NCBI RefSeq assembly: GCF_036009065.1
Contig: NZ_DASYMN010000102.1
Location: 3,202-67,201 of the forward strand
Reading direction: 5' to 3'
Source of the DNA: Bradyrhizobium sp.
Lineage (GTDB): Bacteria; Pseudomonadota; Alphaproteobacteria; Rhizobiales; Xanthobacteraceae
Length of the DNA stretch: 64,000 nt
Shown: positions 1,479 through 44,882 of the stretch, piece by piece
How the letters are laid out: every line of letters begins with the position of its first letter
How positions within the stretch are numbered: the stretch's first letter is position 1
Notes under the pieces: generated by a model
The model's database searches: none
The model's input: the letters and a program-made list of their open reading frames with translations, nothing else
What the model was told of the DNA's origin: nothing
Translations under genes and position numbers: made by a program

Positions 1479-1510
1479 GGAGAATTGAATGCAACAATAA
1501 GGACTTCACC

Positions 1511-2257
1511 ATGAACAAAATCGACCTCAACAACCGCTGCGCCGTCGTCACCGGCGGTGCTCAAGGGTTTGGGCGCGCCATCACCGAGCGTTTCGTGGCG
1601 TCCGGAGCCAAAGTCGCGATCTGGGATCATGACCAGCCATTTGCGGAGAAGACCGCGAAAGAAATCGGCGCCGGCGTGACGGCGTTCAAGGTCGACGTCT
1701 CCGATCTCGCCGCTGTCGAAAAAGCCCGCGACGCCACCCTTGCCACCCTCGGCAAGATCGACATCCTGGTCAACAACGCCGGTATCGCCGGCATCAACAA
1801 GACGGTGTGGGAAACCGACCTCGACGAATGGCGCAAGGTGCTGCGCATCAACCTCGACGGCCCCTTCATCTGCTGCAAGGCGATCGTGCCGTCGATGGTG
1901 AAACAGAATTACGGCCGCATCGTCAACATCGCCTCGATCGCCGGCAAGGAGGGTAACCCCAACGCCGCGCACTACTCGGCCTCCAAGGCCGGACTGATCG
2001 CATTGACGAAATCGCTGGGCAAGGAGCTCGCCGGCCACGAGATCGCCGTCAATGCGGTCACGCCGGCTGCGGCAAAAACCGCGATCTTCGACCAGATGAC
2101 GCAAGAGCATATCAATTTCATGCTCTCCAAGATTCCGAAGGGCCGCTTCGTGCTGGTGGAAGAGCTGGCGGCGATGGTAGCGTGGCTGGCATCGGAGGAT
2201 TGCGCCTTCTCCACCGGCGCGGTGTTCGACATTTCCGGCGGCCGCGCAACGTACTGA
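1511..2257 (+). CDS. SDR family oxidoreductase (FabG-like)
   Basis: TGGAQGFG, NNAG, catalytic YSASK. Confidence 0.88.
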   Translation: MNKIDLNNRCAVVTGGAQGFGRAITERFVASGAKVAIWDHDQPFAEKTAKEIGAGVTAFKVDVSDLAAVEKARDATLATLGKIDILVNNAGIAGINKTVWETDLDEWRKVLRINLDGPFICCKAIVPSMVKQNYGRIVNIASIAGKEGNPNAAHYSASKAGLIALTKSLGKELAGHEIAVNAVTPAAAKTAIFDQMTQEHINFMLSKIPKGRFVLVEELAAMVAWLASEDCAFSTGAVFDISGGRATY

Positions 2258-2517
2258 TCCGGTTCGAAAGCCTGAAGAACCGGGGATTCCCGAGGCTTGA
2301 AGCGGTGCAACGACGAACAGCATGACGAACAGCAGCCGGTCAGCGCCGTCAGAAGCGGATCACTCCAGCGTTCCCGCAAAACAGCGATGCGATCATTCGT
2401 ATGGCGGCCGGCCCGATTTCATCGTTGAATACAGTCACACAGCGCGTTGGCCGGGTCAATTCGTGCTAACCTTGCCGCGGTGCACCTACCCGCCAATTGA
2501 ACTGAACGGACAATCGA

Positions 2518-3201
2518 TTGCCTGACATCAGCATCTACGACGTATCGGTTTGGGTATTGCCGCTGGTCATCGCCATCACCTTTCACGAGGCCGCCCACGG
2601 TTTCGTCGCGCACCGCCTCGGCGACAACACGGCCCTTGAACTCGGCCGCGTCAGTTTCAATCCGCTCAAGCACATCGACCCGTTCGGCACCCTTATATTG
2701 CCGGCTGTGCTGTTGCTGTCGCACTCGCCGTTTCTGTTCGGCTATGCCAAGCCGGTGCCGGTGAATTTTCGCGCCCTGCGCCATCCGCGGCTCGACATGG
2801 TCTGGGTGGCCCTCGCCGGGCCGGCGACGAACATCCTGCTGGCTGCACTGGCGGCATCGGCATTTCATCTCTTGAACCTGGTGCCCGACGGCGCCGCGCG
2901 GTGGGTTGCCGACAATCTCAAAAATGCGCTGGTCATCAATGTCGTCCTGGCGGTTTTCAACATGCTGCCGATCCCGCCGCTGGACGGCGGGCGGGTCGCG
3001 GTCGGATTGCTGCCGAACGTGCTGGCGGTCCCGCTTTCCCGGCTGGAGCCGTACGGAATGCTGATCCTGATTGGAATTCTGATCGTTCTTCCGCTCGCCG
3101 GTACGCAGTTCGGTCTAAATCTTGATGTTATTTCAGCGACACTTCGCACGTCGACCGGCTATGTCCTGAGGCTGTTGCTACTGCTGACCGGCAACACGTG
3201 A
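2518..3201 (+). CDS. Site-2 protease (peptidase M50) family protein
   Basis: HEAAH zinc motif, AGP and NMLPIPPLDG motifs, hydrophobic helices; TTG start. Confidence 0.9.
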   Translation: MPDISIYDVSVWVLPLVIAITFHEAAHGFVAHRLGDNTALELGRVSFNPLKHIDPFGTLILPAVLLLSHSPFLFGYAKPVPVNFRALRHPRLDMVWVALAGPATNILLAALAASAFHLLNLVPDGAARWVADNLKNALVINVVLAVFNMLPIPPLDGGRVAVGLLPNVLAVPLSRLEPYGMLILIGILIVLPLAGTQFGLNLDVISATLRTSTGYVLRLLLLLTGNT

Positions 3202-3264
3202 GTCCCATCATCTCCATGCCGCCCGAAAGAATTTGAGGCCGTTTTGATCAAAGCACCGGATAAA

Positions 3265-3669
3265 ATGATCGCACGCCGCGCCGACACCAAGGCGCGCGCG
3301 GATTTTGCGACCTGGAAAATGATGGCCAAGCTGAATGGCGCCTCGGCGCTTCCTGCCGAAGCCCAGCGATTCCTGGGCAGATACAACACGTTTCTCACCG
3401 AGATGACGGAATCCGAAGCGACCGACGCCACCATCAACCTTGTTTACAAAAGCTATTATGCGGAAATGGGCGGCGTCGGCACGCCGCCGGATGTTCGAGC
3501 CGGCCCGAACGATCCCGTGACCGACAACGTCACGGCCTTCAAACGGCCGCCCGCTTCGTGGCCAAAGCCGGCAAGCGCCGCTGCGCAAGCAAGGCCCCGG
3601 CTCCCGGTCGCGCTGATCTTCGCTTGCCTTGCCGCCGTCTATGTCGGATTTCGATATTTTTGGCGGTGA
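3265..3669 (+). CDS. Hypothetical protein with C-terminal membrane anchor
   Basis: High-GC3 ORF ending in hydrophobic LPVALIFACLAAVYVGFRYFWR. Confidence 0.65.
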   Translation: MIARRADTKARADFATWKMMAKLNGASALPAEAQRFLGRYNTFLTEMTESEATDATINLVYKSYYAEMGGVGTPPDVRAGPNDPVTDNVTAFKRPPASWPKPASAAAQARPRLPVALIFACLAAVYVGFRYFWR

Positions 3670-3674
3670 CGCGA

Positions 3675-4067
3675 ATGATCCGGGAAGGCGGTTGTCTGTG
3701 TGGAGCGGTTCGGTTCAAGGCCGAAGGTGAGCCGGTCAACGTCCGCATCTGCCATTGCCGCTTGTGCCAGAAGGCGATGGGCTCGCCGTTCTTTGCGCGC
3801 GCGCTGTTCGATCAGAAAATGCTGACGGTTGAAGGCGACACCGCCCGCTATGCCTCGTCGGAAGCTCTCGACCGGGTTTTTTGCAAAATCTGCGGCACCC
3901 GGCTGTTTGGCTGGCGAAAAAACGGAACGGTCGCGGGCGTCGCGCTTGCTGTTTTCGACGACCGCAACGCATTCGTGCCAACCGAGCATATCTGGGTCGC
4001 GGAAAAGATCGATTGGGTCAGGCTCGAGGATGGGCTGCCGCAATATCCGGGAACGGTCCCCTCTTAA
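3675..4067 (+). CDS. GFA (glutathione-dependent formaldehyde-activating / CENP-V) family protein
   Basis: GGCLCGAVRF, CHCRLCQK and FCKICGT zinc motifs. Confidence 0.9.
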   Translation: MIREGGCLCGAVRFKAEGEPVNVRICHCRLCQKAMGSPFFARALFDQKMLTVEGDTARYASSEALDRVFCKICGTRLFGWRKNGTVAGVALAVFDDRNAFVPTEHIWVAEKIDWVRLEDGLPQYPGTVPS

Positions 4068-4183
4068 AGCGTGACGCCTCCCAACCTTCAGTTCGGGCAA
4101 TTTGCCGCAATGACTGTACCGGCTGCCTGATGTTGGGCATGATGGCTGCCGGGACAAACATTCATCAGATCATTGGAGAGAAC

Positions 4184-5407
4184 ATGAAACGATCGATCGC
4201 AGCTTTGGTACTGACCACGAGTCTTGTGGTCGCCGGCAGCGCGCTGGCGCAAGGCAAGCTCGACAAGGTGGTAAAAGTCGGAAGCCTCGGCGACCAGTCC
4301 AGCCTTTATGCGGATATCGGCGGGCCGGGCTCGGCCGTTACCGCCCAGATGGCGATCGAGGATTCCGGATTGCTGGCCAAGGGCTGGAAGATCGACCTGA
4401 TCACGGCCGATCACCAGAACAAGCCCGACATCGGCACCAACATCGCCAAGCAATGGATCGACGTCGAGAAGGTCGATGTCGTGGTCGATCTTGCCAGCTC
4501 CGGCGTCGGGCTGGCAGTCGCCAACGTCGCGAAGGAGAAAAACATTGTCAATCTGAATTCCGGCTCGGCATCGTCCGATCTCACCGGCCTGCAGTGTTCG
4601 CCGAACACCGTGCACTGGGTTTACGACACCTACATGCTGGCGAACGGCACCGGCAAGGCGCTGGTCAAATCGGGCGGCGACAGCTGGTTCTTCCTGACCG
4701 CGGATTACGCGTTCGGCATGGCGCTGGAGCGCGACACCGCGGCGGTGGTCAAGGCCAATGGCGGACAGGTGCTCGGCGGCGTTAAGCATCCGCTCAATAA
4801 CTCCGACTTCTCCTCGTTTCTGCTGCAGGCGCAAAGCTCGAAGGCGAAGATCGTCGGCCTCGCCAATGCCGGCGGCGATACCACCAACGCGATCAAGCAG
4901 GCCGCGGAGTTCGGCATCGTTGCTGGCGGGCAGAAGCTTGCCGGAATGCTGATGTTCATCACCGACGTGCACGCGCTCGGGCTGAACGTCTCGCAGGGCC
5001 TGAATTTTACGGAAACGTTCTACTGGGACATGAACGACAAGACCCGGGCCTTCACCAGGCGCTTCAATGAGAAGTACAAGAAGAGCCCGCCGACCATGGT
5101 CCACGCCGGCGTGTATTCCTCGCTGATCCATTACTTCAAGGCGCTCGAAGCGCTCGGCGGCAATCCGCATGACGGCGCAGCGGTGGTCGCCAAGATGAAG
5201 GAAATGCCGACCGACGATCCGTTGTTCGGCGCAGGCTCTATCCGCGCCGACGGCCGCAAGATTCACCCCGCCTATCTGTTTGAGGTAAAGAAGCCCGCGG
5301 AATCGAAATACCCGTGGGATTACTACAAGCTGGTCGCTACCATCCCGGCCGACGAAGCGTTCATCCCGCTGGAGAAGAGTGTCTGCCCGATGGTCAAGAA
5401 GAGCTGA
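4184..5407 (+). CDS. Branched-chain amino acid-type ABC transporter substrate-binding protein (stand-alone)
   Basis: Signal peptide; DHQNKPD, HWVYDTY, TADYAFG motifs; GGAG SD. Confidence 0.9.
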   Translation: MKRSIAALVLTTSLVVAGSALAQGKLDKVVKVGSLGDQSSLYADIGGPGSAVTAQMAIEDSGLLAKGWKIDLITADHQNKPDIGTNIAKQWIDVEKVDVVVDLASSGVGLAVANVAKEKNIVNLNSGSASSDLTGLQCSPNTVHWVYDTYMLANGTGKALVKSGGDSWFFLTADYAFGMALERDTAAVVKANGGQVLGGVKHPLNNSDFSSFLLQAQSSKAKIVGLANAGGDTTNAIKQAAEFGIVAGGQKLAGMLMFITDVHALGLNVSQGLNFTETFYWDMNDKTRAFTRRFNEKYKKSPPTMVHAGVYSSLIHYFKALEALGGNPHDGAAVVAKMKEMPTDDPLFGAGSIRADGRKIHPAYLFEVKKPAESKYPWDYYKLVATIPADEAFIPLEKSVCPMVKKS

Positions 5408-5499
5408 GGCTCGTCCGGCTGTCGTTGAAATCCGTCATGGCCGACGCAAATATGCGTCGGCCATTGCGTTCGAATCGGGCCTCGTTGCCACGGAGCAAC

Positions 5500-5783
5500 A
5501 TGATGGATCAATCGCCGCGGATTGAAGCCGTCTCGGTAGCACAACCCGCCACATTGCGGTTGCGATGGCGGGGAAGACGCGCCGGCGACAGCGTCGATCT
5601 TACCGGCTGGATAGCTACCAGCGGACCGACGCTTGCTCCTCTGCGCGAGGCCCCGGTCTTTGCCAAGGCATCGGTCGGAATTACGGGGCCGCGGTGGTGT
5701 GGGAGGATGGCGACCTGGCTATTGATGCTGCGCATCTGAAGTTGCTGGCCGATGAAGAAAAAACCTCCGTCCACGACGGATGA
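5500..5783 (+). pseudogene. DUF2442-like protein, frameshifted near 5680
   Basis: PRIEAVSV...DLTGWIA...APLREAPVF in one frame continues as NYGAAVVWEDGDLAIDA in another. Confidence 0.55.
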
Positions 5784-5802
5784 ACCGGTTAGGCTGCGCC
5801 GC

Positions 5803-6597
5803 TCAACTCTTTCCCTTGACCCTGAAGATCACCGGCAGGGTGAAATTCAGGCCTTCGTCGGCGACCAGCGGCGGGGGCTGCGGCACCGGGTCGGAGCGTT
5901 TGACCATGGCCAGCGCTGCCTCGTCGAACGCGGTATCGCCCGATCCTTTGACGATGCTGGTCGAGAGCACGCGGCCGGTGCGATCGAGCACGAAGGCGAT
6001 CAGGATCTCGGCGGTCTTTTGCTGGCGCTGCGCGGGGTAACGCTTGTGCTTGTCGAGATGGGCGATCAATTCCTTGGTCCAGGTCGCGCGCATGCGCCGC
6101 GCGCTTTCGCCGGTGCCTGAGGCGGGCGCGACCGAGCGCGGGCCCTCGGGAATGGCTTCGGAGCTTGGCGTTGCCGTGGCTTCGGCCGCGACCGATTCCT
6201 GTGAGGCCTGGGTCTGCACCGCGGCGACCTCCTGCTCTTCCTTCTCCGGCTCCTTGATGTCGTTGGTGGTGACGACGCGGTCCGGTTCTTCGGTCTCGGT
6301 CGGCACCGCCTTGGGCAGATCGGTATCCGTGACCACCGCCTGCTGCTCGGCGAGCGCCGGGGAAGCGACGGAAGCGTCGGTATCCGGACCCGGCGGCAGA
6401 TCGGTCGCCTCCTGCCGCGGCGCCATCATCTCCAGCCCGATCTCGATTGCCGGCGCGCCGAGCGAGTCGTCGGGATCGTCGGTCTGCAAATGCGCGATCG
6501 CAAGCGCGGCGCAGCCGACATGGAGCGCGAGCGCGGCAACGCCTGCGAAAATCCAGAGCCGCCGGGACGGCCTTTGTTCGGTGTCGAGGTCAGGCAT
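5803..6597 (-). CDS. tonB: Energy transducer TonB
   Basis: N-terminal TM helix, Pro/Glu-rich linker, KRYP...GSG...FDEAAL...P.PP C-terminal domain; follows exbBD. Confidence 0.9.
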   Translation of the reverse strand: MPDLDTEQRPSRRLWIFAGVAALALHVGCAALAIAHLQTDDPDDSLGAPAIEIGLEMMAPRQEATDLPPGPDTDASVASPALAEQQAVVTDTDLPKAVPTETEEPDRVVTTNDIKEPEKEEQEVAAVQTQASQESVAAEATATPSSEAIPEGPRSVAPASGTGESARRMRATWTKELIAHLDKHKRYPAQRQQKTAEILIAFVLDRTGRVLSTSIVKGSGDTAFDEAALAMVKRSDPVPQPPPLVADEGLNFTLPVIFRVKGKS

Positions 6598-6612
6598 CTA
6601 GGTCGGCGCCAT

Positions 6613-7089
<477 letters not shown>

Positions 7090-7092
7090 TGG

Positions 7093-8061
7093 CTACTCCG
7101 CCGCCCGCGAATGCGTGCCGGAACTGACATGGGTACGGTCGAGATCGCGCGACAACAGCCGCCCGGCGGCGCCGGAGGCCCGGCTCACCAGTTCGAGATA
7201 GGTTTTGGTCACCCGCGCAAAGTGATTGTAGATGATGACGGCCGGGATCGCCGCGACCAGGCCGATCGCGGTGGCCAGCAGCGCCTCGGCGATGCCCGGC
7301 GCCACCACCGCGAGGTTGGTGGTCTGCGCCTTCGAAATCCCGATAAAGCTGTTCATGATGCCCCAAACCGTGCCGAACAGCCCGACGAAGGGCGAGGTCG
7401 CGCCGATGGTGGCGAGCAATCCCATCCCCAAGCGAATCCGCCGCGCCTCGGCGCGCATGATCTCGGCAAAACTCGACGCCGCGCGTTCCTTGATGCCGGT
7501 GTCGGACGAAATTCCCGCCGACAGCCGCGCCTCGCGCATTGCGGCAGCAAGAAACGATGACAGCACGCCCCGCTTGGCGCCGAGCGCGAATTGCGCCTCG
7601 GCCAGCGAACGGGAGTCGCTGATCTTGCCGAGCGCGGTCCTGAGCTTGCGCCGCGCCACCGCAAGCTCGATCATTTTGGCGATGAAGATCGTCCAGGTCA
7701 GCAGCGATGCGAAGGCAAGACCGATCATCACCGCCTTGACCAGGATGTCCGCCGACAGGAACATCGACCACGGCGACAATTCGCGCAGCGCTGCCGCCTC
7801 GGCTTTCAGCGGTCTGCTGCCGCTGTTGGTGAGAGATGCTGCGGATTCGCTCGCCGAAGGTGCCGGCGCCGGCTGAGCGACCGCGGGAGCTGGCTCCTGC
7901 GCCGCCGGCGCGGCGGGCGCCTGAATGGCGGGTTGGGTGACCGCGGGCATTTGCGCTGCCGGCGCGGGCGCCGTCCGCTGCGCAACCGATGGCGGCGCGA
8001 GCGACAGCATTGCAAGCGCGAGAATCACACCACAGGTCGCTCGAAAAACTGACACATTCAT
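7093..8061 (-). CDS. exbB: ExbB proton channel with Pro/Ala-rich N-terminal extension
   Basis: LATIGATSPFVGLFGTVWGIM and VAPGIAEALLATA motifs. Confidence 0.95.
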   Translation of the reverse strand: MNVSVFRATCGVILALAMLSLAPPSVAQRTAPAPAAQMPAVTQPAIQAPAAPAAQEPAPAVAQPAPAPSASESAASLTNSGSRPLKAEAAALRELSPWSMFLSADILVKAVMIGLAFASLLTWTIFIAKMIELAVARRKLRTALGKISDSRSLAEAQFALGAKRGVLSSFLAAAMREARLSAGISSDTGIKERAASSFAEIMRAEARRIRLGMGLLATIGATSPFVGLFGTVWGIMNSFIGISKAQTTNLAVVAPGIAEALLATAIGLVAAIPAVIIYNHFARVTKTYLELVSRASGAAGRLLSRDLDRTHVSSGTHSRAAE

Positions 8062-8496
8062 GCTTCGGCCCAGGTGCGGGATAGGTTATGATAGATACCG
8101 GTCAATTTGACCGTTTCAGGGTCATCTCGCCCAGGCCGCTCTACAACCGGCTCTTCGATGTCGACATCGAAGAGAACGCTGCGGGCGTGAGCATTCGATA
8201 CCATGCTCTGCACCCTGAAAAAAGCCGCAACACGTAACCCTCGCGTGAACACCTGCAAACCGGAACCTGGACCAGGTATGAGATGACGCGCCGGCGATTT
8301 GGTTCCTTAAGACCTAAATACCCCGCAACCCGGTCGGCACCAACTGCATTGCTCCGCGGCCTTTCTAGAACTCCTAAAATCTGGCGATCGCCGAAAGCCG
8401 CACGGGTCAGCGGCTGGCCGGGCACCATGCTGTTGTCGCCGCCCGGCCGCCGCCCGATAGCTCTTGTCGAGTTCGTGGAAATCGTAATGATCCTCG

Positions 8497-10860
8497 CTAG
8501 AAATTGGCTGTTGCGGACAGGCGAAACACGCGCGGCGACCCGGGGGTGATATTGTTGTTGCCGTCCGCGGTCGCAATGTAGCGGCGATCGAAGACGTTCT
8601 CGATGTTCAATTGTGCGCGCCACATCGCGTTGAAGCGATAATAGACGGCCGCGTCGACGCGGGTGAACTCCGGCAAGATGACCGTATCATCCGATGAAGC
8701 GAAGAAATTGGTGTAATGAATGACGCCGACGCCGGCTCCCCAGGCCGGGTTGAACTGATATCTGTTCCACAGCGCGAAGGTGTTGAAAGGCACCAGCCCG
8801 ACACGGTTGCCCGCGACGATCGTCGGCGAGGTGCTGCCGACGATCCGCGCATCGGTATAGGCATAGCCGCCCGTGATCTGCCAGGCATCCGTGACATACC
8901 CGGTCAGCGACGCCTCGAAGCCGCGCGTTCTTGTTGCGCCGCTCAGGATAAAGAAGCCGGCGTTGTTGGGGTCCGGAAGGCGCTGATTGGTGCGGTTCAG
9001 CTCGTACACGGCGGCGGCAAATTGAAGCCGGGGGAAGATGTCATATTTCAGTCCGACTTCCTTGTTCGCAAACTTTTCCGGCTCGGCAAGGACCAGGCCC
9101 GGAGAAAGCGCGCTGAACTGGTCGCCGGCGCTCGGCAGGTAGGAGACGCTGTAGCTGGTGTAGACGGCGAGATTTTCCATCGGTTTCAGCACCACGCCGG
9201 CGCGCGGGGAAACCAAATTGTCATCGCGGCCGAGGCTGATGCCGGTTCGGCGGTCGCGCGACTCCAGCCCAAAATGATCGAAGCGGACGCCGCCGATCAA
9301 CTGCAGGTACCGGGTAATTTCTATCTGGTCCTGCACATAGACGGCGCCCAGATCGAGTTTGTAAGTGTTGTTGGCGCCGGTCGCGATGTTGCGGAAGCTC
9401 ACCGGCACCAAGGACACCGGATTTCGCGGGTCGACCGTGATGGTGTTTGTCAAATTGTTGAAGAATCCGTCTTGCCGGAAATTCAAGCCATTCTGCCGTC
9501 CGACCTCGCCGCCGAACACGACGGTATGACGAATCGGGCCGGTGCCGAACCTGTAGGTAAGATCGGTCTGGTTGAACAGATTCTGCCGGTCGGTTTCGTT
9601 GTTGTACGCGGTCAGGTTGCTCGAAGTGCCCGCGACATTGACGGCGCCTGCATCGGCGCCGCCGCCGGGAAAGATGTTCTGGTAGAACTTGTCGTATCTG
9701 GCAAACTGGGACGCGTTCCTGATCGTCAGTCCGTTCTCGAAATCGTGCTCGACCACGGCATTTGCTATGTCGACGTCGGCAAGCGCGTAGTTGAGATCCG
9801 GATTGCCGAAGAACGTCGACGGCGACGTATTGTAAGGCATACGGGGGGAAACCCCGCCCGGCAGAATCTGCGAAGGAATGCCGCGGTCGGTGACCCGGCG
9901 GTCGTGCAGGTGCTCGTAGCTCAGTTTGACCACCGTGGTGTCGTTCGGTGCGAAGGTCGCGGTGGGATTGATTGCCCAGCGTTCCAGATTGACGAAATCC
10001 CGGTAGCTTTGGGTGTTCTCGTACATGGCGTTGAGCCGGAATGCCCAGTTCTCGTTGACCGCCTGACCGACGTCCGTCGTGACGCGGCCGCCGGGATAGG
10101 AGTTGCGGCCGACCGTTACCTCGCGAATGGTGGTGCCGTCGGCTTCCTTGAGCACGCGATTCACCACGCCGCCGCCACCGCCCCGACCGAAGATCAGCGC
10201 GTTCGGCCCCTTCAGGACTTCAAGGCGCTGCAGATTATAGAAGTCGCGGAAATACTGAACGTCGTCGCGAATCCCGTTGGTGTAGAAGTCGGCGTTGCTG
10301 CGTTGACCGCGGATGACCAGGTCGTCGCGGTTCGATTCGCCTTGATGGTAGATCACGCCGGGGACGTAGCGGACGGCCTCGCCGATCGACGTGAAGGCCT
10401 GGTCCTTGATGAATTCCTTGGTCAGCACCGAAACCGACGCCGGTATGTTGAGCAGCGCGGTGTTGGTCTTGGTTGCGCTCGACGTGCTCCCGGTGACGTA
10501 GCCGGTCTGTCCTGTCCGGGCGTCCTGCGGATTGACGCTGGGTTGCCGCGGCGCCTGCACCTGCTGCTGCACGGCAGGTCGCGTGGTCCGCGCCGCCCTC
10601 CGCGCACTGACTGGACGATGCTGCCGGGCGCGGCGCACACGCGGAGCGTCCGGAGCACCTACATACACCGGCGGCAGCGATGAGACTCGGGGCTTGGCGT
10701 CTTGCGCGGCCGTCGGCGTCACGCCGAGCGCTGCTGCGACTCCGAAGGCGACGATGCTTGTGGAGACGGATAGCGTCGCCCGCGAACACGCCGCCAAAAC
10801 CTTGCCGGAATAGCCGGCGGCAACCGGCCGCGACGACCTCGTTATTTTTGCTGTGCTCAT
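8497..10860 (-). CDS. TonB-dependent siderophore receptor
   Basis: Plug motifs (SATKT, IRG, EVLKGPNAL.FG), beta-barrel-like pattern, C-terminal aromatic residue (LSATANF). Confidence 0.93.
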   Translation of the reverse strand: MSTAKITRSSRPVAAGYSGKVLAACSRATLSVSTSIVAFGVAAALGVTPTAAQDAKPRVSSLPPVYVGAPDAPRVRRARQHRPVSARRAARTTRPAVQQQVQAPRQPSVNPQDARTGQTGYVTGSTSSATKTNTALLNIPASVSVLTKEFIKDQAFTSIGEAVRYVPGVIYHQGESNRDDLVIRGQRSNADFYTNGIRDDVQYFRDFYNLQRLEVLKGPNALIFGRGGGGGVVNRVLKEADGTTIREVTVGRNSYPGGRVTTDVGQAVNENWAFRLNAMYENTQSYRDFVNLERWAINPTATFAPNDTTVVKLSYEHLHDRRVTDRGIPSQILPGGVSPRMPYNTSPSTFFGNPDLNYALADVDIANAVVEHDFENGLTIRNASQFARYDKFYQNIFPGGGADAGAVNVAGTSSNLTAYNNETDRQNLFNQTDLTYRFGTGPIRHTVVFGGEVGRQNGLNFRQDGFFNNLTNTITVDPRNPVSLVPVSFRNIATGANNTYKLDLGAVYVQDQIEITRYLQLIGGVRFDHFGLESRDRRTGISLGRDDNLVSPRAGVVLKPMENLAVYTSYSVSYLPSAGDQFSALSPGLVLAEPEKFANKEVGLKYDIFPRLQFAAAVYELNRTNQRLPDPNNAGFFILSGATRTRGFEASLTGYVTDAWQITGGYAYTDARIVGSTSPTIVAGNRVGLVPFNTFALWNRYQFNPAWGAGVGVIHYTNFFASSDDTVILPEFTRVDAAVYYRFNAMWRAQLNIENVFDRRYIATADGNNNITPGSPRVFRLSATANF

Positions 10861-39148: not shown

Positions 39149-39222
39149 TGGGGAATGGTGTAACGGTAGCACAACAGACTCTGACTCTGTTTGTCTAGGT
39201 TCGAATCCTAGTTCCCCAGCCA
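39149..39222 (+). tRNA. tRNA-Gln (anticodon CTG)
   Basis: TGGGGAA/TTCCCCA acceptor stem, ACAGA-CTCTGAC-TCTGT anticodon arm, GTTCGAATC T-loop, encoded CCA. Confidence 0.97.
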
Positions 39223-39258: not shown

Positions 39259-40689
39259 CTACGTGCGTGGAGAATCCGCCACGGCCACGACGATTCTTCG
39301 ATCCCAAAGCCACTGCAGCATGTTCCGGCCGAGATCGGGCGACATGCGGTCAGACCAGGCCTGCACGATGGAACCGGCGGTCTCGTCAGAGCGTATCTGC
39401 CGCAACAACGGGACCAGTTCGACTTCGCTCAGAAAGGCGACGGGACGATCCAGCGCCGCATGACAGAGCGCCGGCGTGGACGCGATCATGTCGCCCTGCA
39501 TGACCGGCATCGACTCGATCCGCGATAGCTTCGAAAGCTCGATCCTGCACGCCGGTTCTAGCCGTCTCGTTTCCAGCGGCGGCGGAGCGATATCGCGCAC
39601 GGCGGCAGCGGCGCGCTGCTGCCAGAACGGCCCCCCGGTTACGGCGGCGCGCTCCTGATAGAAGGCCGCCGCGCTGGCGGTGTGCTGTGAAACCTTTTCG
39701 GTTTGACGGTCCTTGTAGAATGTGATCGCGTCTGCCGCATGCGCCGGATGTTTTGCCAGCGTGTTGATGACCACGGCCGCCTGCAGTCCCGAGACCACGG
39801 CGCTTTGAATGCCCTGCGCAGACAACGGGTCAAGGGTCAGATTGGCGTCGCCGACCCGCACAAAATCCGGCCCGGCGGCGTGCTCGGCATGCCGGCTCGA
39901 TGCGTCGCACGCGGCGACCTCTCCCGCGATGCGGCCGGCCTCGTCCTCGCGAAACAATCTGAACCGGCGGAGGAGGTCGAAGTAAATGCCTTCGATGTTC
40001 GTCCGCGACCTGCCCGACAGGAGCTTCGGATCGATGAATACGGCGGCGACCGACTTGCCGCTGCCGAGCGGCGCGTACCAGAGCCACATATTGTCACCGG
40101 CCTCCACGCATCCCTCGACCTGCTTGCGGTCCGGCGCGTGCCAGTGCGCGAACAGGCTGAGCAATGGAGCGGAGCTTCGGATTCGCCGGCCGGGCAGCAA
40201 TGCCCGGCTTCCGGCGGCATCGACGAGGAACGTCGCCACGATCTCCTTTCGGCTTCCGTCATGCCGAACCGGGATTTGCCAGCCGCCGCCGTGCAGCCGC
40301 TGGGGGCTCATCGCATGCGCAGGCCGCAGCACCATGACGCCGCCGGCTTCGGCGTTGCGCAGCAGGATGTCATCGAACCGGCAGCGGTCCACATGGAAGC
40401 CGGGAAGCCCGGGCAACGACCGAACAGAAGGCCGCGCGTCCGCCCACCACACCACGATTCGTTCGGGACGCAGGAAGCCGGCACGCTCCAGGCGATCGCG
40501 GACCCCGATGACCTCAAGCAACGGCAGGATGCTGGACGGGAGTGATGCGCCGCTGCGCGCTTCAGGTACCGCATCGCGCTCAAGCAGACAGACCCGATAG
40601 CCGAACGAGGCGAGCCGGCAGGCGGCGGTTGAGCCGGCAGGGCCGCCGCCGATCACGCAAATGTCCGCCGTGATCCTTGCGATTTCCAT
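39259..40689 (-). CDS. FAD-dependent oxidoreductase, LodB/GoxB/QhpG-like, with C-terminal extra domain
   Basis: IGGGPAG, VDRCRFD, FLVDAAG, GDANLTLDPLSAQGI; in an operon with a LodA-like gene. Confidence 0.82.
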   Translation of the reverse strand: MEIARITADICVIGGGPAGSTAACRLASFGYRVCLLERDAVPEARSGASLPSSILPLLEVIGVRDRLERAGFLRPERIVVWWADARPSVRSLPGLPGFHVDRCRFDDILLRNAEAGGVMVLRPAHAMSPQRLHGGGWQIPVRHDGSRKEIVATFLVDAAGSRALLPGRRIRSSAPLLSLFAHWHAPDRKQVEGCVEAGDNMWLWYAPLGSGKSVAAVFIDPKLLSGRSRTNIEGIYFDLLRRFRLFREDEAGRIAGEVAACDASSRHAEHAAGPDFVRVGDANLTLDPLSAQGIQSAVVSGLQAAVVINTLAKHPAHAADAITFYKDRQTEKVSQHTASAAAFYQERAAVTGGPFWQQRAAAAVRDIAPPPLETRRLEPACRIELSKLSRIESMPVMQGDMIASTPALCHAALDRPVAFLSEVELVPLLRQIRSDETAGSIVQAWSDRMSPDLGRNMLQWLWDRRIVVAVADSPRT

Positions 40690-40696
40690 CTGGCAA

Positions 40697-42079
40697 TTAA
40701 GGGTGCGCCTGCGAATTCAGGACCTGGTGAAGCAGCGGAGGCTTCGCTTCCATCAGTCGCGCGTACACGCCGAGACAATAGTGCAGCCAGCCGCGAATGT
40801 AGTCGCAGGCGGGACGGCCACGATGAATGACCTCGTGATGGCAACCGCCACCGCACTGATGGCGCGCCCAACAGGTTCGGCAGGGCTCCTGCCTCTGCAC
40901 GTTCCGGTCCGATAGCCAGCGCTGCTGCTTTTCGCCGTCCACGCCATCGCTGACGTTGCCCATCGCGCCGAGATCGTCGTCGACGAAGCGATGACAGGCG
41001 AACAAGTCTCCCTTGGAGGAAACGCCGAGATAGCCCCCACCCGCGCCGCACGGATAGGCGTCGCGGTTTGGCTTGTGGATGCGGCGGAGCGTGTTGATGA
41101 TATTCAGGAATGGATAGATTTCGTTGTTCATCAGACGCTGCTCGAACGTCTCAGCGCATGCGATCATGCGCGCGAGCATGGCGTCGAACTCGCCCCTGCC
41201 CATCTGGTCGGAACCCGCCGGGGATTTCAGCACCGGCGAGAAGGACACGCCGTCGAAACCAAGGCGCGCGAGTTCGTCCAGCGTTTCCGGCAGGCCGAGG
41301 TTTCGCGGGGTGACGCTCACGCGCGCGATGACCTGCGAGCGGCGATGTGGGCGCAACAGCAGCAGTTTCGACCGTTCGATAATGCGGTCATAGCTGCCCC
41401 GGCCGGACTTGAACGGCCGCAGCGCATCATGGGCCGCGCCGACCCCATCGATGCTGACCGTCACGGTGAACCCGTGGCGGTCGAAGAACGCCGCATCGTC
41501 GGCCGTCAGCAGCGTCGCATTGGTGGTCAGCGCAAACGCGACGTTGATACCCAACGATGCCGCCCTGTCGGCGGCATAGCGCGTTGCTTCCTGCAAGACC
41601 GTCCGGTTGACCAACGGTTCACCGCCCAGATACGCAATCGTGATATTTTCGCCGGGCTCCGCGTCCGCCAGCAGCCGGTCGACGGACGCCTTCGCGACCT
41701 CAATCGGCATGCTGCTGTCGGCGCCGCCGAAATTGCCCTGCTGCGCGTAGCAATAGGTGCAGCCGAGATTGCACTTCTGCGCCACCGCGAGCGACAGCGC
41801 GCGGACCGGGACCGACACAGGCGCCTGCTCGGGAGCCCTCGTCTCGCCAAGTCCGGCGGCCGACATGATGAAGCCGACCCGCTCCGCGTCGCCATACTGC
41901 ATGGCTCGATCGAGCACTTCGGCCATCGCGTCATCGATCTCATGGATAAGTCCGTCGTCGATCGACAACAGCATGGTGCGCGCGTCCGCGCCGAACAGAT
42001 GTGCGTTCGGAACTCGGGGAGCGCTCGCGTAACGGGCGCGGCGGTCCGGTGCCGGCAAGTCAACGCCGATTGCTTCCAT
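40697..42079 (-). CDS. Radical SAM/SPASM domain protein (QhpD/thioether-maturase-like)
   Basis: CNLGCTYC, GGEPL, TTNATLL; SPASM CGAG..GDLFACHRF and CRTCWARHQCGGGC..C; N-terminal RRE-like region. Confidence 0.9.
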   Translation of the reverse strand: MEAIGVDLPAPDRRARYASAPRVPNAHLFGADARTMLLSIDDGLIHEIDDAMAEVLDRAMQYGDAERVGFIMSAAGLGETRAPEQAPVSVPVRALSLAVAQKCNLGCTYCYAQQGNFGGADSSMPIEVAKASVDRLLADAEPGENITIAYLGGEPLVNRTVLQEATRYAADRAASLGINVAFALTTNATLLTADDAAFFDRHGFTVTVSIDGVGAAHDALRPFKSGRGSYDRIIERSKLLLLRPHRRSQVIARVSVTPRNLGLPETLDELARLGFDGVSFSPVLKSPAGSDQMGRGEFDAMLARMIACAETFEQRLMNNEIYPFLNIINTLRRIHKPNRDAYPCGAGGGYLGVSSKGDLFACHRFVDDDLGAMGNVSDGVDGEKQQRWLSDRNVQRQEPCRTCWARHQCGGGCHHEVIHRGRPACDYIRGWLHYCLGVYARLMEAKPPLLHQVLNSQAHP

Positions 42080-42109: not shown

Positions 42110-43321
42110 CTAGGCTATCAAGTCCTCGATGTCGTCGCCGGGCCCGCGTTCGGTTTCTACCTTCTTGCCAGACACCACCCGCATCACGCCGATCTTGTCC
42201 ACATGGCGGTCCATCCCATTCGGATCGAATTCCAGCGTTGGTCCATTGTCTGACGTGTCCGCATACTGTTTTCGGAAGAACTGGACCAACGTAGACGTCT
42301 CCTCATCAAGGTATGCCTCTTGCGGAAGGTGCTGCGCCCAGTAACCGACACATGCAGCGAAGTCGCCCTGCCACGGCGAGCACAGCCCGCTCGTCAGTTG
42401 CCCCGGCACCGCGCCGGGCCCGGTGTCGGTCAGTGACGCCTTGTATCGAACACGCGCTTCCCGGGGATCGACTTTCGGATCCTGGCTGCTCAGATAGAAG
42501 ACGCTCTTGATATCGATTACTTCCGTTCCCGGACCCGCGGAACCGAATGATGTCTCCATGCCCGGTTGAAATCTTCGCGTTGTCGATTCAAGCGCTCCCT
42601 CGTCCAAGGCTCTCGCGGCCTGGTTGTGAAGATTGCCGGGCGGGAGATTGTCGGGAATTTGAAGTCTTTCCTGGAAAAATTCGATCAGGCTTTCAGGTTC
42701 ATTCGTATCGGGTGAGAAGTCCTGCGGAGCAACCACGATGCAGGCTGGCAGCACGTCCGGCGTCTGGCCGCCGCCGGTCAGTTTCACGGTGACCGATCCA
42801 TCGCTGGCGTTGTCGGTAATTTCCTCGGAATACATACCGGGAATTTCCTGGCCCTTGGTCTTGCGCACCGCTCGCGCTATCGGCGGAATGAACAGGCCGT
42901 CCGAGGTGATCTGTCCCATAGCGACATCTTTTCCTTCATCGAATCCCGGCAGAGAGCCGACCAGCATTCCACCACTCGCGTCATCGGAGGAGGCCTGTGC
43001 CGAGATTACGAAGTCGGTGCTGCTTAAGGGGATGTCTTTCCGATTGGCGATCTTGCGATTGGCGACCCTCGCCGACCACACCGCCTGAATTTTCAGGGCG
43101 CCCATCAATTTCGGGGTGAGTTCGCCCAGCCCGGCGTGATTTTCCCCATAGGCGTAAATCCTGAACTGCACGGCTTGCCGCTTGATCAGACCATTGGATT
43201 TGTAGGTGCCCGGATCTTTGCCAAAAACGTAATGATCATCATTGCGCGACAGCCGTGCAATTCCGATTGCGGGATGAATCTTGAAGACGACAACATTGCT
43301 CAGGTCATACGGAAATGCCAT
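42110..43321 (-). CDS. LodA/GoxA-like CTQ-dependent oxidase, unusually short (403 aa)
   Basis: KIHPAIGIAR, IKRQAVQFRIY, W..RVANRK, D..SDGSV, PG.E, PGQLT..LCSPWQGDF..C...W; GAGGAG SD. Confidence 0.8.
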   Translation of the reverse strand: MAFPYDLSNVVVFKIHPAIGIARLSRNDDHYVFGKDPGTYKSNGLIKRQAVQFRIYAYGENHAGLGELTPKLMGALKIQAVWSARVANRKIANRKDIPLSSTDFVISAQASSDDASGGMLVGSLPGFDEGKDVAMGQITSDGLFIPPIARAVRKTKGQEIPGMYSEEITDNASDGSVTVKLTGGGQTPDVLPACIVVAPQDFSPDTNEPESLIEFFQERLQIPDNLPPGNLHNQAARALDEGALESTTRRFQPGMETSFGSAGPGTEVIDIKSVFYLSSQDPKVDPREARVRYKASLTDTGPGAVPGQLTSGLCSPWQGDFAACVGYWAQHLPQEAYLDEETSTLVQFFRKQYADTSDNGPTLEFDPNGMDRHVDKIGVMRVVSGKKVETERGPGDDIEDLIA

Positions 43322-43378: not shown

Positions 43379-44389
43379 CTATGGAACATACTCGAACGGT
43401 AACCCCAGCTGTTTTCCGGTGTGGGAGTCCGGCGTCGACACCACGCTCTCAGCGAGTTCTCGAAGGGACGACATGGCGCCGACCGCGCCGGTAATCCCTC
43501 CCGGCGAACCGTCGAAAACATTCTGCAACCCGCGAAGCATGTTCGAGTACGCTTTGTTGAATCCATCCACTTTCGTCCGTTCTGCCGAGCCCACCGGATA
43601 GTCTGCCGCCTTCGGGTTATCGGGAATGTCCCAGACGCCTGTCGGATCGAAAATCAGCGGATTGCCTGTATATGAGTACCCGTTTTGCGCGGCCGGATTT
43701 ACGACCAACTCCGCGCCACGATAAATCCCCTCGAACAGGTAAAAGTGAGCGAACTTGCCGTCCACATCGAGCGGAGTTAAAGTTGTTCCCTCTCCATCCT
43801 CGACGACGCGTTTGAGAGCCTTTACGGCCGTTGCTGCATCGGTGATTGCGTAAAGCTGATCCGAAGGAAACGAGTCTTCGTCGACGACCTGACGGCCCGG
43901 GTCTCCGGTGAAGATGGCGTCGCCGAGCTGGTCGATCTTCTCGATAATCGACCGGTAGAATTCTCCGATCGTCGCGAACGAGGCGCTAAAGGGAATAATC
44001 GTTTCGGGTGCTTCGATCTTCATGAAGACATCGTGAACGAGTTCCACGGAAAACTTCTTGAGACCGACCTGCAAGCTGCCTCCTATGTTCATCGGCAGCG
44101 GCCCCGGGTAGACAGGCGCGGCCTTCGGATCGGCAATGAGAGGGCGGCCATCAACCGCATTGAGAACGTTCGCAACGATCGTCATGTGCAGCATCTCTTC
44201 CTTGGCTACCTTAAAGATTGTTCTTTTGATTTCTTTATTGGTGCCCGGCATGATGCTGTACACAGCTGTCAAATAAGGCGGGATCGTTGACAGTTCGAGT
44301 TCAATGGCTTTTTGCAGCGGTTCATGCAGATCGGCGCCGCTCTTGGCGTTGCGCGCAGCTGCTACATAGACGGGATCGATGCGAAGCAT
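43379..44389 (-). CDS. Ferritin-like domain protein (VioB/RebD C-terminal-like)
   Basis: LQKAIELELSTIPPYL, EEMLHM..VANVLNA, TIGEFY, EDGEG, AHFYLF; start could be 44404 or 44425. Confidence 0.82.
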   Translation of the reverse strand: MLRIDPVYVAAARNAKSGADLHEPLQKAIELELSTIPPYLTAVYSIMPGTNKEIKRTIFKVAKEEMLHMTIVANVLNAVDGRPLIADPKAAPVYPGPLPMNIGGSLQVGLKKFSVELVHDVFMKIEAPETIIPFSASFATIGEFYRSIIEKIDQLGDAIFTGDPGRQVVDEDSFPSDQLYAITDAATAVKALKRVVEDGEGTTLTPLDVDGKFAHFYLFEGIYRGAELVVNPAAQNGYSYTGNPLIFDPTGVWDIPDNPKAADYPVGSAERTKVDGFNKAYSNMLRGLQNVFDGSPGGITGAVGAMSSLRELAESVVSTPDSHTGKQLGLPFEYVP

Positions 44390-44882
44390 GATTGCCGTGC
44401 CCATGGCTGGAGGACCGCTCGGCACATATCCACGAGCTATCGCTCGCGATAGGCGGCCCCTCGCGTTTCGGAACGTGGTCTGAGGTCTGCAACTATATTT
44501 TTATGGTGACGATTATAACTTGGCTGTAATTTCTTGCTTTTGAGAATTACCGGAAGGTTCACATAAATCTGCTTTCTCGTCAACCGCAACGCGAACAATA
44601 GCGTTAGCTCTCGTGGTCGAGTCCCGGCCTGAGCGCCCATCCGTCAGTTGTGAATGTATCTAAACTTTCTCAGCACTTTGTGCGCTTGGATCCGAGATCG
44701 ACCGCTTCGTATCTCACTCGCGTTCGCGGGTGCGTACAAATGCCACATCTGAGCACGGGTGCGGCTCGATGCCGACGTCAGCAGCAAACGGGTGGCCACG
44801 CGAAGCGATGCAGTAGCGACGAACCCGCCACCAAGATTGCCGGCCTCCACGTGCGGCGGGCTGTTCATCGCACCGCGCTGCC

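Follow-up and report, generated by a model that had tools for sequence, protein, structure and literature searches.

The window analyzed here, a stretch of 64,000 nucleotides (nt) from Bradyrhizobium sp. (NCBI RefSeq assembly GCF_036009065.1, contig NZ_DASYMN010000102.1), harbors on its (-) strand a gene (42110..43321) for a protein of 403 amino acids (aa) that is a compact representative of the LodA/GoxA fold superfamily and is denoted mini-LodA in the following. Very probably, mini-LodA is a cysteine tryptophylquinone (CTQ) enzyme that is matured by the route of quinohemoprotein amine dehydrogenase (QHNDH) and not by the LodB/GoxB route, as judged from its active-site loop and its gene neighborhood. 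The loop resembles that of the QHNDH subunit QhpC and contains a cysteine, C314, six residues ahead of the catalytic aspartate D320; the genes of a QhpD-like radical S-adenosylmethionine (SAM)/SPASM enzyme and of a QhpG-type flavin monooxygenase follow directly downstream. The cassette probably combines the LodA/GoxA scaffold with a QHNDH-type cofactor loop and both kinds of maturase, and thus represents an undescribed hybrid CTQ route.

Fold and active-site motif of mini-LodA

Both LodA domains are recognized in mini-LodA by Pfam, namely LodA_N (PF17990, 50.9 bits with a cut-off of 26.3), which begins at residue 16, and LodA_C (PF18417, 31.5 bits with a cut-off of 25). With the NCBIfam equivalogs of LodA and GoxA (NF038172 and NF038173), scores of 26.5 and 27.6 bits are obtained, the cut-offs being 600 and 750, and the protein is therefore not assigned to either of them. 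The AlphaFold2 (AF2) model calculated with 109 homologues has a pLDDT (predicted local distance difference test) of 93.1 and a pTM (predicted template modeling score) of 0.93. In a Foldseek search of this model against the PDB, all 48 matches below an E value of 1e-3 belong to GoxA or LodA, the query-normalised TM-score being about 0.6. The mini-type family comprises 315 clusters at 90% identity, with lengths of about 390-425 aa.

The active-site loop L313-Q330 (LCSPWQGDFAACVGYWAQ; 42332..42385, (-)) is read from the translation of 42110-43321 (-) as L313-CSPWQGDFAACVGYWAQ-330. Its motif had been located originally at 42338-42382, which is exact, the codons of W328 and C314 forming the two ends. 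By alignment the motif sits on the catalytic Asp-x3-Cys of LodA (core RMAC507PWQAD512FFNC516, further on YWW581PPQSP) and GoxA (core WMG672IPWQSD678AASC682, further on SWW697AANLP). D320 (42362..42364, (-)) is therefore assigned as the catalytic Asp, equivalent to LodA D512, GoxA D678 and QhpC D33, and C324 (42350..42352, (-)) as the putative CTQ cysteine, equivalent to LodA C516, GoxA C682 and QhpC C37. The putative CTQ tryptophan is W328 (42338..42340, (-)), which is aligned with GoxA W697, LodA W581 and QhpC W43 via the common motif W-[PA]-[AS]-[QN]-x-P, so that a LodA/GoxA-type catalytic Asp-x3-Cys with a downstream CTQ Trp is present. C314 (42380..42382, (-)), the proposed thioether donor, is equivalent to QhpC C27.

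C314, S315, W317, Q318, D320, C324 and W328 are invariant in the 109 aligned homologues, as are the acidic residues E67, D170, D174, D201, D240 and E389 elsewhere in the protein. Of the three cysteines of mini-LodA, C194 is variable in the family and C314 and C324 are conserved; W328 is the sole Trp downstream of C324. The formation of CTQ from C324 and W328, as suggested in the original prediction, agrees well with this invariance, with the lack of a second downstream Trp and with the alignment to the tryptophans of GoxA, LodA and QhpC. It had further been stated that typical LodA proteins do not have Cys at the position of C314, and this is indeed the case: the residue is Ala506 in LodA, Gly672 in GoxA, and A, G or S in the 70 canonical loci described below. 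LodA carries an idiosyncratic Cys507, one residue past Ala506. The bare pattern C-x5-D-x3-C is common, with 106 occurrences among 5.56 million six-frame open reading frame (ORF) residues of the same genome; the case therefore rests on the position and conservation of the motif.

Kinship of the loop with QhpC

The QhpC peptide on which the original comparison had been based is identical to residues 26-46 of chain C in PDB entry 1JJU and one residue off chain G of 1JMX. In order to compare the loops at the profile level, nine QhpC sequences from true qhp loci were combined into a profile and aligned to the mini-LodA profile with hhalign (probability 86.9%, E 4.1e-6), which places QhpC positions 52-80 (leader-inclusive numbering) on residues 311-337. 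This alignment, proposed earlier as a check, brings all four functional residues into register, pairing C27 with C314, D33 with D320, C37 with C324 and W43 with W328; the L, the P and the A-Q following the Trp are in register, too. C27 of QhpC forms a thioether with D33, and D33 is at the same time the conserved active-site Asp (PMC7876137).

Relatives of mini-LodA extend this similarity. A mini subfamily (P0097-P0120 and L004; e.g. in Bradyrhizobium sp. NAS96.2) and the large type described below read AC-T-C-x-F-W-P-A-Q-R-P-D, which is near to C37-x3-C41-W-W43-P-A-Q-V-P-D49 of QhpC, where D49 is the known partner of C41. In the mini-type alignment, the extra Cys and an Asp matching QhpC D49 are present together in 19/19 sequences, while the Asp is found in only 4/99 sequences without the extra Cys. 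Owing to this Cys-Asp covariation the pairing logic of QhpC appears to be retained in the relatives, which favors C314-D320 as a pair. Together with the alignment of C27-D33 it makes D320 a reasonably likely acceptor for the sulfur of C314. The subfamily of the window, judged from the alignment, has lost both the extra Cys and the D49-matching Asp.

The Pfam model of QhpC, PF08992, does not match the window peptide and gives 20.9 and 19.6 bits for relatives (cut-off 25). QhpC itself is a small peptide made with an N-terminal leader, carries three Cys-Asp/Glu thioethers and is exported to the periplasm, while mini-LodA has 403 aa and one candidate Cys-Asp pair. As far as sequence comparison goes, the relationship between the two is one of motif-level homology and not of family membership.

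The original prediction had also raised a shared origin of the active-site peptides of the two CTQ families, and several searches lend support to it. A 50-aa peptide of a relative, compared with all PDB sequences, matches LodA and QhpC only, and a profile of the relatives' peptides matches only LodA, GoxA and QhpC (1JMX_G, E 0.053) in the PDB. Among 24,736 Pfam models, the relatives' peptides match LodA_C and QH-AmDH_gamma only, and PF08992 reaches E 3.5e-4 with a relative that has a radical SAM neighbor and E 9.2e-4 with a LodA-like protein that has none. Many canonical LodA-like proteins without a radical SAM neighbor (e.g. L009, L010, L018, L039 and L080) contain F-W-P-A-Q-V-P-N or W-W-P-A-Q-R-P-D past the CTQ Cys, nearly the C-W-W-P-A-Q-V-P-D of QhpC, with a Cys-to-Trp spacer of 3 to about 64 residues. 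Since the window peptide misses PF08992, the suggestion of a shared origin leans on the relatives and on the profile comparison. Given the similarity of the loops and the homology of the maturases, common descent of the LodA/GoxA and QhpC loops, in either direction, is more likely than convergence.

C314 tracks the radical SAM gene

Loci were collected by a scan of one genome per species, covering 185,579 species, which yielded 80 loci. Eight of these encode a full-length mini-LodA and stem from Leucothrix, Opitutus, Thermoanaerobaculia, Bradyrhizobium, Aphanothece, Albibeggiatoa, Stappia and Verrucomicrobiales, i.e. from at least six phyla. In each of the eight the loop reads GLCS-x-WQ-x-D-x3-C and a QhpD-like and then a QhpG-like gene lie directly downstream; a ferritin-like gene is found upstream in seven. 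Cys at the 314 position and a QhpD-like gene occur together in 9/9 mini loci. The canonical LodA-like set consists of the other 72 loci, with the motif found in 70 (L050 and L060 gave none). None of these 70 has a Cys at the 314 position, where A, G or S is found instead, and none has a QhpD-like gene. The covariation of the Cys with the radical SAM gene that had been suggested as a check was thus observed for the mini type and, as described below, for the large type, with neither feature present at any of the 70 canonical loci.

L038 (Streptomyces sp. NPDC020681) was considered as a counter-example, as a canonical LodA-like gene is followed there by a radical SAM gene, and was rejected. The gene (L038:11482-12543), located just after the canonical LodA-like/LodB-like pair, encodes a TIGR04463-like radical SAM/SPASM enzyme of the type acting on peptides that are synthesized ribosomally and modified post-translationally (RiPPs), with only 57.6 bits for QhpD, and probably belongs to an unrelated neighboring cluster.

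The type of flavoprotein changes accordingly. At loci linked to the radical SAM gene, QhpG is the top-scoring model and is matched up to about position 415 of 423, whereas at loci without this gene LodB or GoxB scores best and the match to QhpG reaches no further than about position 339. The genome of the window provides an internal control, as it contains two canonical LodA-like genes with Ala at the 314 position and only LodB-like partners.

In a tree of the radical SAM enzymes, the true QhpD sequences form one clade (support 98) and all LodA-associated enzymes another (92), which includes a mini-associated subclade (96). The two outgroups are too distant and the branches too long for rooting, and the tree is taken to support only that the LodA-associated clade is separate from QhpD. 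As the LodA-associated enzymes form one clade, the concordant loci probably go back to a single origin and should not be counted as independent of each other.

The large type

A second cassette is present on another contig of the same genome (locus L087, C351:5001-16000). Its genes (1482-3401, 3401-5743, 5740-7095 and 7091-8497) encode a 640-aa ferritin-like protein, a very divergent 781-aa LodA-like protein, a QhpD-like enzyme (308 bits) and a QhpG-like protein (314 bits). The 781-aa protein has only sub-threshold Pfam matches and carries GLCSPWQNDFRECSCYYWASARPD; its active site reads ELTQGLC688SPWQND694FREC698SC700YYW703ASARPD709. Homology of the mini and the large type is indicated by hhalign (97.9%, E 4.5e-13). 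C314 is invariant across both types, which have little else in common. A Foldseek search with the AF2 model of the 781-aa protein returned LodA and GoxA only, a weak support as the model is poor (pLDDT 63, below 50 in the motif region).

The large type comprises at least 1,366 clusters at 90% identity, all labeled hypothetical; like the mini type it stems mostly from soil metagenomes. At 80 metagenomic loci of the large type the motif does not vary, and in 77 of them the next gene downstream is the radical SAM gene; the remaining three have less than 500 nt of downstream sequence. Counting only the informative loci with at least 500 nt, the radical SAM gene is present in 70/70.

Further variation was noted within the large type. 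The QhpG-like gene is located upstream of the ferritin-like gene and not after the radical SAM gene in L154, L155, L159 and L166, and L126, L151, L162, L168 and L169 have no QhpG-like gene within 2.7-7 kb downstream. Additional invariant cysteines of the 781-aa protein (L087:3401-5743) are C272, C443, C511, C512 and C635. The stretch N-C511-C512-P-G-L-E516-x-D518-F resembles a C-x-P-x3-D-F loop and may, as a sequence-based suggestion, form an additional cross-link site. Directly after the second cassette, L087:8497-8949 encodes a 151-aa protein with a sterile-alpha-motif domain (SAM_1/SAM_2), which is unusual in bacteria.

The probable substrate of the radical SAM enzyme

Across the nine mini-type loci only the four cassette genes are conserved, and no small Cys-containing ORF was found in or adjoining the operon or conserved in the nine loci. 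A hidden precursor peptide was considered and rejected: the intergenic gaps measure 57, 30 and 7 nt, the sole small upstream ORF (44437-44640) has no Cys, and there is no extra conserved gene. A thioether former requires a Cys as donor. With just four conserved genes and a ferritin-like protein that is free of Cys, the thiol can come only from the LodA-like protein; with C324 taken as the CTQ Cys by homology, C314 is left as the putative thioether donor.

No true QhpD or QhpC was found in the genome of the window. The search with PF08992 gave no match there, but the control genomes were equally silent, and therefore the QhpC profile from true qhp loci was used in its place. In three control genomes it detects QhpC with an E of about 1e-62, and in the genome of the window it reaches only E 0.04, with a match that falls on the active site encoded by a canonical LodA-like gene. 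A qhp-positive genome of the same class has a second weak match of the QhpC profile (G056:C4:499735-499932, E 0.0075), which lies in a 506-aa open frame and may be another LodA-like active site.

The radical SAM-dependent cross-link from C314 that had been postulated at the outset is accordingly consistent with three lines of evidence, i.e. QhpD as the best family for the enzyme, the co-occurrence of Cys and gene, and the elimination of other donors.

Genes of the cassette

The four genes are co-oriented on the (-) strand in the order ferritin-like, mini-LodA, radical SAM/SPASM and flavin adenine dinucleotide (FAD) monooxygenase. The first gene (43379..44425, (-)) encodes a ferritin-like protein of 348 aa (Pfam PF12902 Ferritin-like, E 2.7e-64) with 0 Cys. 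Its closest solved structure is 3HL1, a 'ferritin like protein' (E 1.9e-7), and the gene is found upstream of mini-LodA in 8/9 mini loci.

The QhpD-like radical SAM/SPASM enzyme of 460 aa (40697..42079, (-)) is encoded 30 nt past the mini-LodA gene. Out of 18,950 NCBIfam models, QhpD (TIGR03906) is its top family with 308 bits, followed by the Cys-thioether formers PapB, nif11 maturase and ScfB, of which PapB and ScfB are below their cut-offs. Direct reading of the sequence reveals the CX3CX2C radical SAM cluster motif (C103, C107 and C110; 41750..41773, (-)) and the SPASM motif CX2CX5CX3C (C400-C413; 40841..40882, (-)); the full set of seven SPASM cysteines is present (C344, C362, C400, C403, C409, C413 and C425). 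The N-terminal region of QhpD is thought to bind the leader peptide of QhpC (PMC7876137). The corresponding N-terminal segment of about 88 residues in the window enzyme may recognize the substrate by a different domain, one that fits a protein without leader; the paralogue on contig C351 aligns from position 62 of the QhpD profile.

The FAD monooxygenase of 476 aa (39259..40689, (-)), which starts 7 nt past the radical SAM gene, passes the QhpG equivalog NF049967 with 286.7 bits (cut-off 240) over profile positions 1-423, i.e. at full length including the C-terminal part, and contains a GxGxxG motif (40633..40650, (-)). Its scores against LodB and GoxB are 129 and 105 bits (cut-offs 400). The cassette does not have the arrangement expected of a LodB/GoxB-type flavoprotein acting alone as maturase, the radical SAM gene being located between the mini-LodA and QhpG-type genes. 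A tRNA-Gln(CTG) gene on the opposite strand (39149-39222, (+)), 36 nt past the end of the QhpG-like gene, bounds the operon.

Proposed maturation and alternative explanations

In the proposed maturation, the QhpD-like radical SAM/SPASM enzyme would join the sulfur of C314 to a methylene carbon of D320, as in C27-D33 of QhpC, leaving the Asp carboxylate free. The QhpG-type flavin monooxygenase would dihydroxylate W328, and oxidation together with attack by C324 would complete the CTQ. The mature enzyme would oxidize a primary amine or an amino acid with the tethered D320 as catalytic base, and the ferritin-like protein might act as its partner, handling either electrons or oxygen, or else the product. 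In a wider evolutionary reading, which we regard as tentative and rate slightly below an even chance, QhpC and LodA/GoxA would go back to one ancestral CTQ loop. The 'GLCS' clade would have kept the linking state, with leaderless RiPP-type radical SAM/SPASM chemistry tethering the catalytic Asp of a full-size enzyme before the QhpG-type enzyme builds the quinone, and would constitute a third, hybrid CTQ class.

Several observations weigh against this proposal. The radical SAM enzyme does not qualify as a QhpD equivalog, its 308 bits falling short of the cut-off of 453 and of the 660-760 bits of true QhpD, and its N-terminal segment of about 88 residues lies outside the QhpD match. To our knowledge, a leaderless 44-kDa protein substrate has no precedent for the class of QhpD-like enzymes. 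As suggested by the tree, the association of the Cys with the radical SAM and QhpG-type genes probably arose once. In the loop itself, residues 311-320 have the lowest confidence of the core in the AF2 model (mean pLDDT 75), the Cys-to-Trp spacing is x3 instead of x5 as in QhpC, and the 45-aa peptide of the window is without a match to PF08992. As D320 is required for catalysis, it is kept without exception in LodA-like proteins, and its conservation is therefore no sign of an acceptor role.

The last point bears on a rather unlikely variant in which the radical SAM enzyme forms the thioether of C314 with an acceptor other than D320, be it another Asp or Glu or, as known from ranthipeptides and SCIFF peptides, a Thr, an Asn or some other residue, which would be near in space and not at +6. 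Catalysis alone would explain the invariance of D320, as canonical LodA-like proteins keep it without a radical SAM enzyme; the next-best families PapB, nif11 maturase and ScfB use varied acceptors and spacings, and the further invariant acidic residues E67, D170, D174, D201, D240 and E389 would be available. However, the local QhpC alignment sets C27-D33 exactly on C314-D320, and the covariation, in the relatives, of the second Cys with an Asp placed like D49 of QhpC suggests that the pairing logic was kept. With a similarly low probability, C314 may not be cross-linked at all and could be a metal ligand, a redox thiol or a transient disulfide partner of C324. In that case the radical SAM enzyme would perform other chemistry, e.g. 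on the Trp, or serve mainly as a scaffold for the QhpG-type protein, and the co-occurrence would be a lineage effect. The single clade of LodA-associated enzymes, which amounts to roughly one evolutionary event, is compatible with this, as are the score below the QhpD cut-off and the different N-terminal region; in QHNDH, QhpD is also required merely to hold the substrate for QhpG (PMC7876137). On the other hand, the top-scoring families are all Cys-thioether formers and the full SPASM Cys set is kept, C314 is invariant in two types that are otherwise little alike, and the Cys-Asp covariation in the relatives argues for real cross-links.

It is very improbable that no tryptophylquinone is formed and that the LodA-fold protein, the ferritin-like di-metal protein, the radical SAM enzyme and the flavoprotein act together on a metabolite in a small-molecule or other pathway. 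The ferritin-like domain family does occur in VioB-type biosynthetic enzymes and no substrate-related genes are conserved nearby, but the CTQ-defining Asp-x3-Cys...Trp triad is invariant, the flavoprotein exceeds the QhpG equivalog cut-off and the radical SAM enzyme falls into the SPASM group that modifies peptides and proteins. Maturation of a CTQ enzyme via a C314-D320 thioether is hence the explanation preferred here.

Significance

In full-text literature searches, no publication was found that describes this system or connects LodA-like proteins to QhpD, to QhpG or to a radical SAM enzyme. A survey of 168 LodA-like proteins from 2015 does not mention radical SAM. According to a review from 2025, QHNDH, LodA and GoxA are the only recognized CTQ enzymes, and the biogenesis of QHNDH is distinct from that of LodA/GoxA (PMC11951088). 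If the proposal is true, a directly testable evolutionary link would exist between two CTQ families that are treated as separate, and radical SAM/SPASM "peptide maturase" chemistry would extend to a leaderless, full-length enzyme. A covalently tethered catalytic Asp would become accessible in a soluble single-chain 44-kDa protein, which lends itself to study far more readily than QHNDH with its three subunits in the periplasm. The hybrid class would comprise at least 1,600 protein clusters, functionally unnamed save for a generic LodA/GoxA label on a few. As the clade is large and almost wholly unannotated, a new amine-oxidizing activity and a new role of the ferritin-like partner may be widespread.

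Comparison with known systems

The ranthipeptide/SCIFF maturases PapB (NF047865) and ScfB (TIGR03974) are the second- and fourth-best matches of the window radical SAM enzyme, with 262 and 224 bits. Enzymes of this type form a bond between the sulfur of a Cys and a carbon in the side chain of Asp or of another residue. Their substrates are short precursor peptides with a leader, whereas no gene for such a peptide is conserved at the mini-LodA loci.

In QHNDH (QhpC PF08992, QhpD TIGR03906, QhpG NF049967; PDB entries 1JJU and 1JMX; PMC7876137), the loop L-C-x-P-x3-D-x3-C...W-x-[AQ] is in register with that of mini-LodA. QhpC is a 9-kDa peptide with a 28-residue leader, whereas in mini-LodA the loop is embedded in a 44-kDa LodA-fold enzyme, and only one Cys-Asp pair is possible in contrast to three in QhpC. 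The window radical SAM enzyme differs from true QhpD in score, as given above, and by its separate clade. None of QhpA (dihaem), QhpB, QhpE (protease) and QhpF (exporter) is conserved near the mini-LodA loci.

LodA and GoxA from Marinomonas mediterranea and Pseudoalteromonas luteoviolacea (PDB entries 3WEU, 2YMW and 6BYW) have the same fold as mini-LodA, built from LodA_N and LodA_C domains. Common to all are the P-W-Q-x-D-x3-C core, the downstream Trp in W-[PA]-x-[QN]-x-P, the lack of a signal peptide or leader, and a flavoprotein gene in the operon. With 403 aa mini-LodA is about half the size of LodA/GoxA (680-816 aa), and its CTQ Cys and Trp are separated by 3 residues as compared to 14 in GoxA and 64 in LodA. 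Where LodA has A506 and GoxA has G672, a Cys is found in mini-LodA; its partner flavoprotein is of the QhpG instead of the LodB/GoxB type, and a radical SAM/SPASM enzyme as well as a ferritin-like protein are encoded in addition.

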